Made by a program: the position numbers and the translations under genes
Notes under the pieces: generated by a model
Databases searched by the model: none
Told to the model about the DNA's origin: nothing
Seen by the model: only the letters and a program-made list of their open reading frames with translations
Part shown: positions 8,860 to 61,993 of the stretch, in pieces
Numbering within the stretch: position 1 is the first letter of the stretch
Layout of the letters: each line of letters begins with the position of its first letter
Assembly (NCBI GenBank): GCA_946546945.1
Contig: CAMNOU010000012.1
Location: forward strand, 24,014 to 88,013
DNA: 64,000 nt
Source: an uncultured Lachnospiraceae bacterium
GTDB lineage: Bacteria > Bacillota > Clostridia > Lachnospirales > Lachnospiraceae
Direction: 5' to 3'

Positions 8860-10238
8860 TGTTCTTCCTCCACGTCCATTCCTTCCATATCCGGCTCTTC
8901 CATGCCCTGCATGTCTTCGCCTTCTATGCCCTGCATATCTTCGCCTTCCATGCCCTGCATATCCTCGCCTTCTATGCCCTGCATATCCTCGCCTTCTATG
9001 CCCTGCATATCTTCCATATCGGCACTGTACATATCGTCAGACATCTCATTCATAAGGCTGGATTCTTCTATGTTTTCTGTCGTTTTCATGCCTTCGGACA
9101 GGGACGGCTGTGCCCACGCGATCAGATCGTCTTGCGTGAGTCCGGAAAGGATTTCATACATATCCAGTTCTTCGTTGTATTCCCCGAGCTCAACAGTGCG
9201 TTTTTCCAGTCTTCCATTGCCATTATCGGCCCACACATAAGGTGTCTCCGCCTCATCCTGCACAATATAACTGCTGTATAGCCAGAGTCCTTCTGTTTCG
9301 GAATCCTGTCCCTCATCCAGCTCTATGTAAACATGCTGGCCAAGCATCAGTCCGTCACTGGAAGACAGGCTGATATAAAACGGATATTTGGTAGATTTTG
9401 CATCCGAATCGGAAGACTCCCCCATGTAATTATTATTGCTGTCTTTTTCCTGATTATCCGTATCTATATTTTCAATCGTGCCATACCAGACCGCATTGCT
9501 GTCCACGCGGGAACGAAGGATCACGGGAGCACCCTCTTCCAGCATCCATACGTTGGTCTCATTCACAACACCCTTGACTCTGTAGTCACCGGTTGTGAGG
9601 ATGGACATGAACGGTTTTGCATTCCCGTAATTGTCCATCTCATTGTCCTGATTGATGGATTTGACCACGCCGTTGATCTTGCTGGTGACCGTTGATTCCG
9701 ACAAAGTATTCTGAAGCTTCTCGATCTCCATCTTTTTACTTTCCTGGCTGTACTCCGCCTGTTTGATCTGTGTCTCCAGACTCTGGATCTGCACCGTATA
9801 GCTGAACTGTTCATCCTTGGACACGGTGTTCTTTTCCGCGTTCAGAGCCTTGATCTGGCTGTTGTACCCGGTAATCTCATTGCCGATCTCCTCCAGTTCG
9901 AGCTTCGCCTGCGCTACCTGAAGAGTCAGATCCGTCGTATCATATTCAAACAGGGGCATGCCTTCTGTGACTTCATCCCCCTCCTGAACAAACACTTCCT
10001 TTACTGTCTGCTCAGATGCAAGGGAAATATCCCAGGTCTTCTGGGACTCCACCACGCCGGAATACCGGTTCTGGGCGCCCGCATTCTTTGTGTCCATGAC
10101 TTCCGCTACAGACTCCACATAAGCCGCATCCCCGCCGCCCGTTTTCTGTCTGTTATGCCGGAACCAGAACAATACGCATGCCGCAGCTGCAATGATTATG
10201 ATAATGATAACAATGATCTTCTTTCTCTTTTTTCCCAT
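8856..10238 (-). CDS. second HlyD-family membrane-fusion protein with C-terminal acidic octapeptide repeats
   Basis: The ORF runs to 10304, but the likely start is ATG at 10238 (MGKKRKKIIVIIIII signal-anchor, upstream AGAGGGG). Has a lipoyl motif VQEGDEVTEGMPLFEYD and a C-terminal (GEDMQGIE)n tail. Confidence 0.8.
   Translation of the reverse strand: MGKKRKKIIVIIIIIIAAAACVLFWFRHNRQKTGGGDAAYVESVAEVMDTKNAGAQNRYSGVVESQKTWDISLASEQTVKEVFVQEGDEVTEGMPLFEYDTTDLTLQVAQAKLELEEIGNEITGYNSQIKALNAEKNTVSKDEQFSYTVQIQSLETQIKQAEYSQESKKMEIEKLQNTLSESTVTSKINGVVKSINQDNEMDNYGNAKPFMSILTTGDYRVKGVVNETNVWMLEEGAPVILRSRVDSNAVWYGTIENIDTDNQEKDSNNNYMGESSDSDAKSTKYPFYISLSSSDGLMLGQHVYIELDEGQDSETEGLWLYSSYIVQDEAETPYVWADNGNGRLEKRTVELGEYNEELDMYEILSGLTQDDLIAWAQPSLSEGMKTTENIEESSLMNEMSDDMYSADMEDMQGIEGEDMQGIEGEDMQGMEGEDMQGIEGEDMQGMEEPDMEGMDVEEEQ
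8901..9020. repeat. 24-nt tandem repeat x5 inside a CDS
   Basis: Units catgccctgcat(g/a)tc(t/c)tcgccttc at 8901, 8925, 8949, 8973 and 8997 (the last is degenerate). In frame, they encode EDMQGIEG repeats. Confidence 0.9.
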
Positions 10239-23318: not shown

Positions 23319-24092
23319 TCACGCTCCGCCCGTAACGATCAGAGTGGCGAACCCGTCTTCCTTCAGTTTTTTTTCAAGAGAAACCGCCTCATCCAATGAA
23401 GAGGCCGGTCCGATCCACACTCCGTAATACGGCTTTTCATAGTGGATTTCCCCCTCATATCCGATTGACTCCAGCCTTTCCAGCTGATAGACGGCATTCA
23501 CATCATATTTGAACAGTCCTGTCTGAACAAACCAGGATTTCCCCCGCGAAGTTCCGGAAAGCGGGATGGCATTTTGGATGCCCGCGGCAATTGCATCAGC
23601 GATCTGATCAAATTTTGCATCAAATAGTTGATTATCGGCATCATTATTCAAAAACCCGACTTCGACCAGCACAGCCGGCATTTTCGTTTTCCGAAGCACG
23701 ATCAGTCCGGGGACTTCTTCCACTCCCAGATTTTTGAATCCGACGGCTGCCAGCTGTTCATTAATACTGGAAGCAATCCTGCTGACCGTATCATTTTCCC
23801 GGTAGACCAGGGATTCCACTCCGTTATATAAATTGTCTTCCATGGCTGAATTGCGGTGAAAGGAAATAAAATACCTGCCTCCCGACTGATTTGCCAGTTC
23901 TGCTTTTTCATAAGGAGAATGATACACATCCTCCGTGCGCGTATAATACACTTTGTAACCGGCCTTTTCCAGCCTCTCTCCCACCGCCATCGTCAGCCGG
24001 AGAACATCATCCTTTTCCGCGCGTCCCATATAAGACGCCCCATTGTCAAACCCGCCGTGTCCCGCATCCAGAATAATATCTGTTCCCATCAC
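23319..24092 (-). CDS. N-acetylmuramoyl-L-alanine amidase (Amidase_3) with C-terminal SPOR-like domain
   Basis: 257 aa. Amidase_3 motifs ILDAGHGGFDNGA and VLVEVGFLNN. The C-terminal ~70 aa resemble a SPOR fold. No signal peptide is evident. Confidence 0.85.
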   Translation of the reverse strand: MMGTDIILDAGHGGFDNGASYMGRAEKDDVLRLTMAVGERLEKAGYKVYYTRTEDVYHSPYEKAELANQSGGRYFISFHRNSAMEDNLYNGVESLVYRENDTVSRIASSINEQLAAVGFKNLGVEEVPGLIVLRKTKMPAVLVEVGFLNNDADNQLFDAKFDQIADAIAAGIQNAIPLSGTSRGKSWFVQTGLFKYDVNAVYQLERLESIGYEGEIHYEKPYYGVWIGPASSLDEAVSLEKKLKEDGFATLIVTGGA

Positions 24093-46477: not shown

Positions 46478-47863
46478 TCACAGGATATCATCTATATCCG
46501 TAATACCGGTGTGTGTCGTTACGATAATGACCGTATCCTTCGGCCTGATGACATCATTTCCTCTCGGTATAATAATCTTTCCCCCGCGATTGATGCAGGT
46601 AACGAGGATATTGTCCCTGATCGGAAGCTGGTAAAGCGGTACGCCGCAAACCTTTGCGTCTTCCCCGACCAGAAATTCGATTGCCTCCACCCGGTCCTGG
46701 AAAAGCTGGACCAGAGTTTCAATATCGCTGTTCATGGATGCTGATTTTGCGCGGACATAGGCAATGATTGCTTCTGATGTTATGTACTTCGGATAAATCA
46801 TACTTCCCAGATCGAGCTTGTCTATGACACCGCGGAAATTGATCCTGTTGATTTTTGTGATCAGCTTTGCATTGGATACCTCTCTGCTGTGGAGCGTAAG
46901 CAGAATATTCTCTTCATCCACTCCGGTCAGAGCCACGACCGCTTCTGTCGTCTCGATCCCCACTTCCTGCAGAAGATCCTCATTCGTTCCGTCTCCGTTG
47001 ATCACAATGGCTTCCGGCAAAAGCACGGAAAGCGTATCGCAGCGTTCCGGATCCTGTTCTATAATTTTTACAGATACGCCCATATGCAGCAGGTGTTTCG
47101 ACAGATAGTAGGCGGTACGTCCGCCCCCGATCAGAATAGCCTCCCGCACCGGATGCGTCGGCAGCCCGATCTTGTTCAGGAATTTTCTTCCGCTCCGGGC
47201 CGGAGAAATAAAAGTAATGACATCCTGTTCTCTGAGAACAAAGGATCCGGAAGGAATCAGCACATCCTTTCCCCGCTCCACTGCGCAGATCAGTGCATTG
47301 CTCAGATGCTCCTCCCCGATCTCGCGAATCTCTTTTCCGGTCAGAATATTCCCTTTCGGAAGCTTAATCCGGAACATATCCGCATGCCCTCCGGCGAAAG
47401 TATTCACGGAGAGCGCCGTCGGGATCGACAGAATCTGCCTGATCGCTGCCGCCGCTTCCTGATCCGGATTGATAATCATAGCCAGGCCCAGCTGTTCCTT
47501 CAGATATTCTGCTTCCTCACTGTAGACCGGCGTGCGCACACGCGCAATGACCTCACAATGCCCGCCTCTTTTCGCCACGACACAGCAGAGCATATTCAGC
47601 TCATCTGAATCAGTCACAGCGATGAACACATCGGCCGTCTCAATACCGGCCTCTATCTGAATTCCAAAACTGGCCGCATTCCCAACCACTCCATATACAT
47701 CATACATATCTGTAATGCGCCGGATCCGGTCCGGGTCCATATCAATCACCGAAATATCATGATTTTCAAGGATCAGGCGCTCGGCAATCGTCGTTCCGAC
47801 CTTGCCGCAGCCAGCAATAATGATCCGCAGTCCTTTTTTTCTGTTCATCTTTTTTGATTTCAT
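46478..47863 (-). CDS. trkA: Trk system potassium uptake protein TrkA (two RCK_N/RCK_C pairs)
   Basis: Rossmann motif IIIAGCGKVG, repeated in the second half (ILIGGGRTA). The ATG at 47863 (MKSKKMNRKK) follows GGAGAAG. Confidence 0.9.
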   Translation of the reverse strand: MKSKKMNRKKGLRIIIAGCGKVGTTIAERLILENHDISVIDMDPDRIRRITDMYDVYGVVGNAASFGIQIEAGIETADVFIAVTDSDELNMLCCVVAKRGGHCEVIARVRTPVYSEEAEYLKEQLGLAMIINPDQEAAAAIRQILSIPTALSVNTFAGGHADMFRIKLPKGNILTGKEIREIGEEHLSNALICAVERGKDVLIPSGSFVLREQDVITFISPARSGRKFLNKIGLPTHPVREAILIGGGRTAYYLSKHLLHMGVSVKIIEQDPERCDTLSVLLPEAIVINGDGTNEDLLQEVGIETTEAVVALTGVDEENILLTLHSREVSNAKLITKINRINFRGVIDKLDLGSMIYPKYITSEAIIAYVRAKSASMNSDIETLVQLFQDRVEAIEFLVGEDAKVCGVPLYQLPIRDNILVTCINRGGKIIIPRGNDVIRPKDTVIIVTTHTGITDIDDIL

Positions 47864-47886
47864 TATTCTTCTCCAAACATAATTCA

Positions 47887-48054
47887 AAACTTCGTCGCGC
47901 GGATTCCCGTGACTTCAATCGTGGGAGGAAGCGCTTATCAACAATCCTTCTTCGTCATGAGTCCAAACTCGCGACGAAGTTTGAAGCCTCCGGCGGATCG
48001 CAGGCGCGCAATAGGAAAGCGCGCCGCGGCAAGTACGCCCGAGGCATACTTGAT
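47887..48054 (+). repeat. copy A of a GC-rich structured repeat (candidate ncRNA)
   Basis: The 72-nt core 47983-48054 is ~93% identical to the reverse complement of 61518-61588. Flank helices 47887-47899/47970-47982 and 47950-47956/47973-47979 are conserved only as structure. A TTGATT-18-CATAAT promoter-like site lies at 47854-47883. Confidence 0.8.
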
Positions 48055-48107
48055 GTCAGGGGGATAAAACTCCCAACTGCTAGACGATGGTTTGTCAGAC
48101 AGCATTA

Positions 48108-48136
48108 ACTATAGAAGAAAACAGAGAAAAAAGCAA
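48108..48136 (-). promoter_or_regulatory. candidate sigma-A promoter for trkA-trkH
   Basis: Minus strand TTGCTT, 17-nt spacer, TATAGT. It would give a ~240-nt leader complementary to repeat copy A. Confidence 0.45.
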
Positions 48137-48210: not shown

Positions 48211-48235
48211 TGAAAAAAACAGCCTTTCGGCTGTT
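48211..48235 (-). terminator. rho-independent terminator in orphan intergenic region
   Basis: Minus strand AACAGCC-GAAA-GGCUGUU followed by UUUUUUU. Confidence 0.65.
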
Positions 48236-48606
48236 CTTTCCTAAAGAGAAGGTATTTTTTACTATGGGGGTAGCAAAAAACTATATAATGTATTGGGGGT
48301 TTTACAGGTATTATAATACCAGATGATTCCCTATAAGTGTGCACAAACTTATGAATAATTTTGGGTTTTTTTCGTAAATAATGAACATGCATATCCCTGC
48401 GGCCTGCCAAAAGTTCTATTCAAATTTCCCAAAAAGCCGTCTGTTTATACATTTTTTATAAATAAGTATTTTATTTTTAGAATTAATTATCTCCGGTTTT
48501 AGACTTTTGACACATTTTGCTCACATTTCTTTTATAAGATATCTACTGTAAAGAAAGCAACTACTCTTTTAGATAAACATTTTCATAACTCAATCTCCCT
48601 ATGTGA

Positions 48607-60440: not shown

Positions 60441-61073
60441 TTACTGCTGCCCGGGAATGGTATACCGATTCAGCATTTCTGTAGCCTCGGCTATAAAATC
60501 TCTTCCGAAAGCAATCCTGTCATCCGGCCCCTTCACCATTACATCATACACACGGTCCATCAGATTATCTGTCACCAATGCATCACGGTCATTTTCCAGT
60601 TCAACCTCCTGTGTATTGACCTTCGCCGCATCCAGGATCGCACTTTTGGAAGGTTTCTGCTGTTTCACATCGCTCCGCGCGCTGCTGCCGGTTCTTTTGC
60701 CGCTGGTATGTTTCTGCCGGCTGTATGCCGGCGCAGTTTCCTCTGACGGCCTCTGATAAGAACGGCTCTGAGGCACATTCGGTTCCGGAACAGTTCTTCT
60801 GTCTGACGGGGCATTCGGTCTGGGCGCAGTCTTTTTGTTTTCCTGTACATTCGGTCTGGGCACAGCCTTTCTGTTTGTCTGCACATTCGGTCTGGCAGAA
60901 CGGGCAGTTTTTTTCACATTTTCGGTCTTTACAGATGCTGATTCCGCAGCTCGCGGCCGGGCCGGCCTGTCATTCGCTGCGTTTTTCTTTTGCGCAGACT
61001 GCATCCTCGATGAGACAACGAGCCTCGCAATCACAATAGCAAAAATCACAATGGCAACGATTGCCTGAGACAT
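60441..61073 (-). CDS. hypothetical membrane-anchored basic repeat protein
   Basis: 210 aa. N-terminal TM helix, a K/R/P-rich region with RPNVQxNxKxxP 12-aa repeats, and a ~65-aa C-terminal globular segment. AAGGAGG RBS. Confidence 0.6.
   Translation of the reverse strand: MSQAIVAIVIFAIVIARLVVSSRMQSAQKKNAANDRPARPRAAESASVKTENVKKTARSARPNVQTNRKAVPRPNVQENKKTAPRPNAPSDRRTVPEPNVPQSRSYQRPSEETAPAYSRQKHTSGKRTGSSARSDVKQQKPSKSAILDAAKVNTQEVELENDRDALVTDNLMDRVYDVMVKGPDDRIAFGRDFIAEATEMLNRYTIPGQQ
60776..60905. repeat. 36-nt tandem repeat (about 3.5 units) inside a CDS
   Basis: Units beginning cattcggtctgggc at 60812 and 60848, with degenerate units on both sides. Confidence 0.8.
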
Positions 61074-61517: not shown

Positions 61518-61686
61518 ATCAAGTACGCCTCGGCGTACTTGCCGCGGCGCGCTTTCCGCTTGCGCGCCTGCGGTCCGCCGGAGGCTTCAATCTTCAGCGC
61601 AGGTATGAAACCCATGCTGAAGACGAAAATGTTAATTTGGCGCATTCCTCTCACGACTAAAGTCACGAGAATCCTGCGCTGAATAT
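61518..61686 (-). repeat. copy B (inverted) of the GC-rich structured repeat (candidate ncRNA)
   Basis: Core 61518-61588 matches the reverse complement of 47983-48054. Helices 61593-61603/61673-61683 and 61592-61598/61616-61622 mirror those of copy A with different sequence. A TATAAT on the minus strand lies at 61702-61707. Confidence 0.8.
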
Positions 61687-61791
61687 TGAAAGCGGCGGTT
61701 GATTATACAACTAACCGTGTCTGAAAAAACGTTTCCGGCAGACCCCTAACCCCTTATTGACCCACTTTCTGACCCACTTTTTACATGACAT

Positions 61792-61892: not shown

Positions 61893-61901
61893 AAAACTTT
61901 A

Positions 61902-61981
61902 TGCGGATAACAGGACTCGAACCTGCACGGTCTCCCACTGGTACCTAAAACCAGCGCGTCTGCCAATTCCGCCATATCCGC
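61902..61981 (-). tRNA. tRNA-Leu (anticodon UAG)
   Basis: 80 nt. Acceptor GCGGAUA/UAUCCGC plus discriminator A, anticodon stem CUGGU/ACCAG with loop UUUAGGU, an 11-nt variable arm, and T-loop GGUUCGAGUCC. No CCA is encoded. Confidence 0.9.
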
Positions 61982-61993
61982 AAATACCCCTGT

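Follow-up and report, generated by a model that had tools for sequence, protein, structure and literature searches.

The 64,000-nt stretch of DNA analyzed here (the window: positions 24,014 to 88,013 of contig CAMNOU010000012.1, assembly GCA_946546945.1, from an uncultured Lachnospiraceae bacterium) carries two inverted copies of a GC-rich structured element, copy A beside trkA and copy B near a tRNA-Leu gene. The analysis reveals that A and B represent a dispersed, modular family of structured RNA elements that is uncatalogued and spans two classes of Bacillota, and we file this family as new within a known kind, namely the orphan bacterial structured RNA or dispersed structured repeat. The 13.5 kb separating the copies holds core housekeeping genes (NUDIX, znuABC, engB, lon, clpX, clpP and tig).

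Examination of the window by several routes returned the same pair. A covariance model found exactly two copies (61518-61627 on the minus strand at 84 bits and 47945-48054 on the plus strand at 74 bits), a repeat finder reported a single inverted pair (47964-48039 and 61532-61607, 76 nt, 88% complementary), and the linker AAGCCTCCGGCGGA is found only at 47984 and 61574 against a chance expectation of 0.39. An earlier note on this DNA had described both copies, and all the helices it named are present; its figure for the core (67/72 identical positions between 47983-48054 and 61518-61588, with one 1-nt indel) was reproduced exactly, while the 5' flank, which it put at ~55–60% identity, is 71% identical in an optimal gapped alignment. 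Compared with shuffled sequences, folding gives z-scores of -4.0 to -6.8 on either strand of either copy. The parts of the two copies and the features around them are collected in Table 1.

Table 1. Parts of the two element copies and nearby features, in window coordinates
Feature	Position	Strand	Description or basis
Copy A, whole element	47883-48054	+	sequence, covariance model
Copy A, P1 5' arm (UUCAAAACUUCGUCGCG)	47883-47899	+	P1 95% paired in 12 long-form homologues
Copy A, Pa hairpin	47897-47934	+	GCGC/GCGC outer stem, GGAU/GGAA internal loop, 8-9-bp stem with tandem G.U/U.G
Copy A, linker with AACAA motif	47935-47949	+	A-rich AACAA-like sequence, recurrent in Lachnospiraceae long forms (alignment)
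Copy A, P2 hairpin	47950-47979	+	CUUCGUC-A-UGAG / CUCG-C-GACGAAG; 3' arm overlaps P1 3' arm
Copy A, shared 3' arm (CGCGACGAAGUUUGAA)	47970-47985	+	partner of either P1 or P2
Copy A, linker J (AGCCUCCGGCGGA)	47985-47997	+	contains anti-Shine-Dalgarno pentamer CCUCC
Copy A, P3	47998-48029	+	U.G base pair, 4 bp, bulged A (48002), 7 bp, loop AAUAGGAAA
Copy A, P4 and AU	48030-48054	+	CAAGUACGC-CCGAG-GCAUACUUG; one C.A mismatch (48036/48046)
Copy B, whole element	61690-61518	-	sequence; 84 bits
Copy B, P1 5' arm	61690-61673	-	
Copy B, Pa	61679-61640	-	
Copy B, P2	61622-61592	-	
Copy B, linker J	61586-61574	-	
Copy B, P3	61573-61542	-	
Copy B, P4	61541-61520	-	
Copy B, AU	61519-61518	-	
Promoter-like TTGATT-18-CATAAT before copy A	47854-47883	+	9/12 match; not above regional chance expectation; weak
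TATAAT box upstream of copy B	61702-61707	-	11 nt upstream of P1; without a good -35 element
tRNA-Leu gene	61901-61982	-	Rfam 15; ~210 nt upstream of copy B, same strand
Promoter-like TTGCTT-17-TATAGT of trkA	48108-48136	-	read from sequence

Identification of a family in two classes of Bacillota

An exact scan for the 17-mer TTGAAGCCTCCGGCGGA in one genome per species returned at least 113 loci. The 17-mer loci listed are mostly chance matches inside genes of unrelated phyla, and clear homologues among the matches listed amount to about 45 loci (L-numbers label homologous loci or contigs throughout). These fall into a Lachnospiraceae/Eubacterium group of metagenome-assembled genomes (MAGs), comprising L007, L026, L048, L051, L054, L099, L102 and many contigs of the rumen MAG RUG11217, and a Planococcaceae/Bacillaceae group of Lysinibacillus, Sporosarcina, Psychrobacillus, Filibacter, Fredinandcohnia and 'Bacillus' norwichensis. 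In metagenomes, a narrower pattern picked up 21 further copies, many apparently of rumen origin. With the core covariance model, true members (about 40) score 32–84 bits and all else scores about 25 bits or less. Eight matches of the 17-mer in viral contigs all score 20 bits or less by this model and were rejected as chance. The element is not a two-copy oddity of this genome, nor a riboswitch or sRNA specific to one locus; it is multi-copy, modular and dispersed, about 110–180 nt long, with several copies per genome.

By searching with the model, we also recovered copies that lack the exact 17-mer, namely L046:2075-2206 (linker AAGCCUCCGGCGAAU, with GGCGAA), L067:6911-7010 (linker AAGCCUCCAGCGGAU, variant CCAGCGGA) and a degenerate copy near position 2800 of L011 (linker AAGCCUUCGGCGGAU, with CCUUC). 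The linker is identical in all copies found through it and nearly unchanged in the three found without it; since the model found these copies, the search can account for only part of the linker's near-invariance.

The proposal that the element matches no known class held up against Rfam 15. At the gathering threshold the whole window gave tRNA-Leu only, at E-values up to 10 neither copy gave a match on the element, RsaE and the ribozyme families included, and at E-values up to 0.05 seven homologous loci gave Cobalamin and Bacillaceae-1 only, none on the element itself. The cobalamin riboswitch (L133:1145-1329, 116 bits) lies on a metagenomic Lysinibacillus-like contig and is unrelated to the element. 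With copy A as query, BLASTN found no match in plasmid and phage collections, no mention of the linker sequence was found in the literature searched, and the passages found in the motif-discovery literature mention neither such a motif nor the carrier genera.

Core fold, covariation and functional strand

The minimal module consists of P2, the linker, P3 and P4 in this order, and a 5' domain (P1 and Pa) is optional. P2 is a hairpin of 12–18 bp with UYAA/UUGA at its base and is perfect in the short-form homologues. It is followed by the linker A-AGCCUCCGGCGGAU, a nearly invariant single-stranded stretch of 13–14 nt that contains CCUCC. P3 opens with a U.G base pair, three further pairs and a bulged A and continues into a stem or tip of any length: the window copies have only an 11-bp stem capped by a 9-nt loop, most other copies carry an extra hairpin, and L010, L011, L024, L057 and L133 carry inserts of 150–250 nt. 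P4, a hairpin of 9–10 bp unrelated in sequence to P2, directly abuts P3 and is followed by AU.

The fold is very well supported by covariation. Across 35 copies aligned to the model, standard pairs make up 93.1% of cells (65.5% in shuffles), both partners have changed in 28 of 32 pairs, and sliding the partners by 1–3 columns lowers pairing to 29–42%; this alignment was fitted to the model, which favours such statistics. An independent MAFFT/RNAalifold run gave compensatory change at 16 of 23 pairs. Within the 35-copy alignment, P3 is 97% paired with 9 of 11 pairs changed on both sides and P4 is 94% paired with 8 of 9. The structure is genuine and is kept by compensatory change, as the earlier note had proposed.

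The same alignment identifies the functional strand as plus for copy A and minus for copy B, as the earlier note had preferred. The P3 base pair is U.G in 21 of the 35 copies, U-A in 5 and C-G in 1, and in the tandem wobble of Pa, among 12 long forms, the first pair is G.U in 11 and the second is U.G in 8 and U-A in 3; on the opposite strand these conserved G.U and U.G pairs would be C.A and A.C mismatches, which fixes the strand. The mismatch in P4 of copy A, which had been read as a hint of the other strand, is a real C.A and was judged an isolated defect.

These results also bear on the idea that A and B are a chance inverted repeat, the ends of a composite transposon or a protein-coding relic, to which we assign practically no probability. 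The copies are inverted, lie 13.5 kb apart and are overlapped by open reading frames (ORFs) of 62–97 aa; against this, the homologues occur singly at unrelated loci and the covariation is far above controls. A composite transposon was rejected because the interval, with lon, clpX, clpP, tig, znuABC and engB, is core chromosome, and a coding relic was rejected on indels that are not multiples of three and on the freely variable length of P3.

A new self-cleaving ribozyme, or another catalytic or processing RNA lying between genes, would be suggested by the compact multi-helix fold with its highly conserved unpaired stretch and conserved bulged A. Many copies with unrelated neighbours in mostly sense orientation are likewise known of small ribozymes, and pistol ribozymes are known from Lysinibacillus (PMC4604425). 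We nevertheless regard catalysis as quite improbable, since the linker is not tied to the helices by any pseudoknot or closed junction, some copies do without P3 or the 5' domain, and no Rfam ribozyme matches even at E = 10. A pseudoknot between CCUCC of the linker and GGAG of the P3 loop is possible in Bacilli and not in Lachnospiraceae, and was not adopted. Two further resemblances were dropped, a tRNA-like P2 loop in some Bacilli (GGUUCAAGCC), which is not conserved across copies, and a boxA-like reading of the GCGC...AACAA linker, which is a loose resemblance only.

A switch-like 5' domain with competing helices

In the long forms, a P1 5' arm starting with UUCAA, the Pa hairpin and an A-rich AACAA linker all lie 5' of P2. 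Long forms comprise both window copies, the L007 group, the RUG11217 group, L124 and the Bacillus-type L022, L039 and L067:3247-3365. Pa combines a covarying outer stem of 4–5 bp (GCGC changing to CACA/UGUG), a GGAU/GGA(A) internal loop and a 9-bp stem, and between copies A and B it shows a C-G to U-A swap with the tandem G.U retained.

The P1 arm and the 5' arm of P2 are near-copies of each other and have a common 3' arm as partner. The P1 arms are UUCAAAACUUCGUCGCG/CGCGACGAAGUUUGAA in copy A and UUCAAUAUUCAGCGCAGG/CCUGCGCUGAAGAUUGAA in copy B, and the hairpin competing with P1 is CUUCGUC..GACGAAG in A and CUUCAGC..GCUGAAG in B. Across lineages, the shared variable arm reads CUUCGUC in window copy A, (A/C)UUCAGC in window copy B, CUUCAAC in L124, CUUUGAC in the RUG11217 type, CUUUGUC in L125 (P1 only) and AUUCAG in Bacilli. 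By comparing own with foreign arms over eight arm sets, we found 15.1 versus 10.8 pairs of 18 for P1 and 13.6 versus 9.9 for P2, and only 3 of 20000 permutations paired as well as the arms' own combination. Compensation was seen at 5 of 10 P1 pairs among the 12 long-form homologues and, by column counts, at 3 of 9 P2 pairs, with P2 89% paired. The mutually exclusive helices with three-way covariation that were first noticed in the window copies recur in eight lineages and are hence general. Joining the outer half of P1 to the inner half of P2 gives L146, a short form of the RUG11217 type, and long and short forms therefore interconvert by gain or loss of Pa between the two direct repeats.

A second competition is present in most lineages, where GCCUC-C-GGCG of the linker can pair with CGCC-GAGGC of P4. 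In copy A and several Bacillus copies this pairing is predicted as the fold of lowest energy; on its linker side the sequence does not vary.

Genomic context of the copies

Orientation and neighbourhood were compared across about 37 non-redundant copies, which are mostly co-directional with their flanking genes. About 14 of them end 13–45 nt before a same-strand start codon that is preceded by a Shine-Dalgarno (SD) sequence, and several begin right after the terminator of the upstream gene. Intrinsic terminators follow P4 within 60 nt in five lineages (L146, L131, L060, L051 and L147) and, where present, do not overlap P4 or other conserved helices; neither copy A nor copy B is followed by one. 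Both promoter boxes reported for the window copies exist, with the qualification that the match before copy A is no better than chance and that the TATAAT of copy B lies closer to P1 than the ~15 nt first given.

The genes downstream are unrelated: they encode an XRE-TPR regulator, pgk, MFS, flotillin, GntR, HD, PfkB-HTH, aroB, pduL, TPR, an ABC permease, SPFH and an ECF S component. Tabulation of 134 neighbouring proteins matched 173 Pfam families, none more than four times; the element is without gene specificity. An apparent ligT-type association (2 of the 134 neighbours) was judged chance.

This context bears on riboswitches. Because the downstream genes are unrelated, the element does not look like a metabolite riboswitch, and the switch-like character attributed to it by the earlier note stands for the covarying helix exchange and not for a classical riboswitch, many copies being without the 5' domain. 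A riboswitch that senses a global signal, for example a second messenger or an ion, and in which the 5' three-helix domain would be the sensor and the terminator or SD mask the platform, could draw on the covarying exclusive helices, on the terminator after some copies and the SD sequence after others, and on the frequency of downstream membrane and transport genes (MFS, ABC permease, flotillin/SPFH, TerC, ECF S component). We consider it very unlikely, given that pgk, aroB, pduL and GntR, XRE and ROK regulators also lie downstream with no family above four in 134, that most Bacillus-type copies have no 5' domain, that the terminators leave the conserved helices untouched, and that copy A has no downstream gene on its own strand and several copies face a convergent gene.

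At the locus of copy A, a promoter-like sequence precedes trkA (Table 1); upstream of trkA in the relatives L161 and L162 the -35 hexamer is identical and the -10 near-identical (TATATA). If this is the true trkA promoter, the leader would be about 235 nt long (47867-48101) and would include the reverse complement of copy A, whose 5' edge on this reading would lie 17–32 nt from the trkA start codon. The relatives' trkA leaders measure 45–110 nt and are without the element. On the plus strand, no gene follows copy A before a convergent terminator at 48241-48212. This terminator, a strong intrinsic one, belongs to a small RNA (sRNA)-like gene of about 90 nt (48212-48306, minus strand) with the C-rich motifs ACCCCCAAUAC and CUACCCCCAUAG. 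The gene is nearly identical upstream of trkA in L161 (~270-355) and L162 (~1225-1310), where a TATAAT box precedes it; its Rfam match is weak only (SQ1002, E = 0.01), and its design recalls RoxS/RsaE.

As for copy B, a Lachnospiraceae copy (L099:4029-4156) lies between two opposite-strand tRNA genes, comparable to the position of B near tRNA-Leu. The first sizeable same-strand ORF downstream of copy B (60441-61073, minus strand) encodes a 210-aa product with no Pfam match and contains three copies of a 36-nt tandem repeat (60775-60895) encoding a proline/arginine-rich repeat. Elsewhere in the window, five overlapping copies of a 24-nt tandem repeat (8866-9033), with 67–81% identity to the reference copy, are probably coding.

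Dispersal and repeat-like behaviour

The element is an assembly-breaking repeat in short-read assemblies of the window's species and of a rumen MAG. In RUG11217, at least nine contigs end inside copies that are more than 95% alike (L028, L037, L042, L074, L077, L098, L103, L110 and L112), and the 2.5-kb contig L077 has a copy at each end. In the window's species, three of the four contigs recovered with an identical TrkA (L158-L160) start 65–90 nt before trkA, at the element, and in the fourth (L157) the element is present. No element lies upstream of trkA in relatives with 83% and 76% TrkA identity, whose leader is much shorter; their intergenic regions cannot be aligned to the window's, leaving no readable empty site from which to take insertion boundaries or a target-site duplication. 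At the copy B locus, the contigs of 85% relatives stop about 115 nt past the YitT gene, at the place of tRNA-Leu in the window, and synteny is lost in more distant relatives.

The build of the copies is mosaic. Bacillaceae-1 (RF01690) is nested within P3 of three Lysinibacillus-type copies (for example, in the P3 inserts at L011:4888-4954 and L133:11425-11492) and lies between P2 and the linker in a fourth, the degenerate copy of L011 (L011:2845-2911). Three tandem 36-nt units occupy the P2 loop of a Lysinibacillus copy (L011:5010-5120), three tandem 44-nt hairpin units lie beside a Sporosarcina copy, just upstream (L067:7010-7130), and L050 equals the L133 locus with P3-P4 deleted. Sporosarcina beigongshangi has four diverged copies with compensatory changes, and because their divergence is compensatory, each is under selection for structure. 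Paralogues within a lineage (A versus B; L124 versus L139) are 93–96% identical in the 3' core and about 70% in the 5' domain, and cores of different lineages are only about 64% alike. This pattern points to a concerted core, which could arise by gene conversion or by co-evolution with a lineage-specific partner.

Many near-identical copies at unrelated loci are thus present, as in an interspersed repeat, and in this respect the element comes close to a miniature inverted-repeat transposable element (MITE), a likeness that the earlier note had named as grounds for refuting its reading. The marks of such elements were sought and not found: there are no terminal inverted repeats (TIRs), the ends sharing at most TCAA/TTGA, which is part of the covarying P1/P2; no direct repeat, and so no target-site duplication (TSD), occurs at about 25 inspected flank pairs; and neither the GTAG signature of the REP type nor its paired arrangement was seen in the element. 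Among the recurrent Pfam families of the 134 neighbours there is no transposase, integrase, reverse transcriptase, TnpB or IscB, and OrfB_IS605, Y1_Tnp and HNH/RuvC are absent from the 25 most recurrent. HEARO and IS605-orfB gave no match, provided that they are among the Rfam families scanned.

A purely selfish, non-autonomous element in the manner of REP/BIME, BOX, Correia or the IS200/IS605-derived PATE, whose hairpins an enzyme encoded at another site would recognize in single-stranded DNA or RNA and whose effect as RNA would be incidental, is a possibility that we take seriously and on balance doubt. The contig-end copies of RUG11217 and L077, the breaks in assemblies of the window's species, the presence or absence at the trkA locus by lineage, and the mosaic build with nested Bacillaceae-1, tandem sub-units and truncation (L050 against L133) all fit such an element, as do the occurrence in every intergenic type beside unrelated genes and the homogenized core within a genome; even the orientation bias could reflect strand-specific insertion during replication. 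Set against it are the missing TIR and TSD, the missing mobility enzyme among recurrent neighbours, the lack of any real match in plasmids, phages or viral contigs, the compensatory divergence in S. beigongshangi, the linker and P3 base shared by two bacterial classes, and the tight spacing that the 3' end keeps to start codons.

Proposed function

From these features we infer, as a tentative proposal that we hold at somewhat less than even chances, a portable post-transcriptional module in which the CCUCC linker would mask SD sequences in cis or in trans under the control of the competing helices, possibly together with RNase III processing and 5' stabilization by P4. The module would be co-transcribed with its neighbours or made from its own promoter and would act after transcription. 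The exposed C-rich linker would pair in cis with the SD sequence where the module ends 13–45 nt before a start codon, and might act in trans in stand-alone copies such as B. Whether the linker is free would be set by P1 versus P2 and, in most lineages, by the linker pairing with the 5' half of P4. The long perfect helices beside a 3' hairpin could form a site of RNase III processing and stabilization. The family spreads through genomes as a small non-autonomous repeat, and within a genome its copies hardly differ in the 3' core. In line with this proposal, strong linker–SD pairing is predicted in L078, L046b and L022, and linker–SD pairing as such in 3–4 of 14 leaders.

Several observations weigh against the proposal. 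The linker in the other leaders is predicted to be paired with P4 or free, CCUCC would bind any strong SD sequence, which leaves specificity unexplained, and about seven copies abut the stop codon of a convergent gene at 0–42 nt, a misfit for a cis-acting mask. Copy A on its preferred strand would be antisense to the putative trkA leader, a placement that suits such a mask no better. Of 23 copies, only 4 have a -10 box just upstream (the putative promoters directly upstream being those of window copy B, L078, L108 and L127), and the CATAAT of copy A abuts P1. P3 is nearly deleted in L127 and L131, and P3-P4 are lost or replaced by a terminator in L067:3247-3365 and L050. The invariance of the linker is partly imposed by the search pattern, and no mechanism of spread was found. 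The functional part of the proposal is weak because linker–SD pairing is predicted in some leaders only.

A bolder version of this portable module, which we think unlikely, would make the element a self-contained RNA switch: the strand-exchange domain would gate the nearly invariant core, which would be an anti-SD linker or a ribozyme active site, and the cassette would spread between genomes and classes, rewiring adjacent genes.

The exposed purine motifs of the same copies raise the alternative that the element is a platform to which a global RNA-binding protein attaches, for example CsrA (through GGA), Hfq (through the AACAA linker) or KhpB, and which would regulate the neighbours or titrate the regulator. 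GGA motifs would be exposed in the GGAU/GGAA loop of Pa and in GCGGAUG of the linker, and the P3 loop reads A-N-N-GGAA-R in Lachnospiraceae and AAGGAG or AAGGGAG in Bacilli. The distance of about 40–90 nt from the P3 loop or linker to the downstream SD sequence is of the order reported for bridging by a CsrA dimer, for which the comparison is CsrA and hag in B. subtilis, and a core that stays constant within each lineage would agree with co-evolution with a partner. P3 is without GGA in L078 and L060 and missing in L131 and L127, and purine-rich loops and such short motifs are common; we therefore consider a protein platform rather improbable.

Relation to known systems and significance

The element resembles known systems in two respects, its behaviour being like that of BOX, Correia, REP or bcr1 and its design like that of sRNAs with a C-rich seed. 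BOX of pneumococci, Correia/CREE of Neisseria, REP/BIME and ERIC of enterobacteria and bcr1 of Bacillus cereus are transcribed interspersed structured repeats, and like them the element is short, modular, intergenic, multi-copy and probably co-transcribed, with stable hairpins and no protein. In contrast to BOX, Correia, REP and bcr1, it has no TIR, TSD or GTAG-type signature, its copy number seems modest, its linker and bulged-A helix span two bacterial classes where those repeats are genus-specific, and it has the three-way covarying helix exchange.

Bacillaceae-1 is likewise an orphan multi-copy structured motif of Bacilli and physically co-occurs with the element. It is described as carrying pyrimidine-rich UCCU-type loops. 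It differs in having its own sequence and fold of two short hairpins in 67 nt; the element gives no RF01690 match, and its Lachnospiraceae copies carry no Bacillaceae-1 module.

Sibling copies per genome, putative promoters and terminators of their own in some copies and an unpaired, SD-complementary C-rich motif flanked by hairpins are shared with the C-rich seed sRNAs (RoxS/RsaE and LhrC). Unlike these, many copies of the element are leader-embedded or antisense, its dispersal is wider and its build more modular, and its seed is a single CCUCC within a longer, nearly invariant stretch. Riboswitch and attenuator leaders share the covarying competing pairings, and some copies lie just before an SD sequence or terminator as such leaders do, whereas the element has no coherent gene link, its competitor arms lie upstream of the conserved core and not in an expression platform, and its switch domain is optional. 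By the features that define them, the element does not qualify as a MITE, an IS200/IS605 derivative or a riboswitch, nor as a member of any family of Rfam 15.

If true, these findings add a widespread orphan RNA to the Bacillota, present in Lachnospiraceae of rumen and gut and in Planococcaceae and Bacillaceae of soil, which is noteworthy for its unusually clean covariation, its 14-nt nearly invariant single strand and its three-way compensated helix exchange. Bacillaceae-1 can be a sub-module of this larger element, which may help to explain that motif. In practical terms, the element breaks short-read assemblies and places structured RNA in leaders such as the putative one of trkA, with consequences for annotation and expression. 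Its significance would be much greater were the linker shown to act as a mobile core that masks SD sequences or is catalytic, and if the element were indeed a portable switch, it would constitute a class of mobile riboregulator without a described counterpart.

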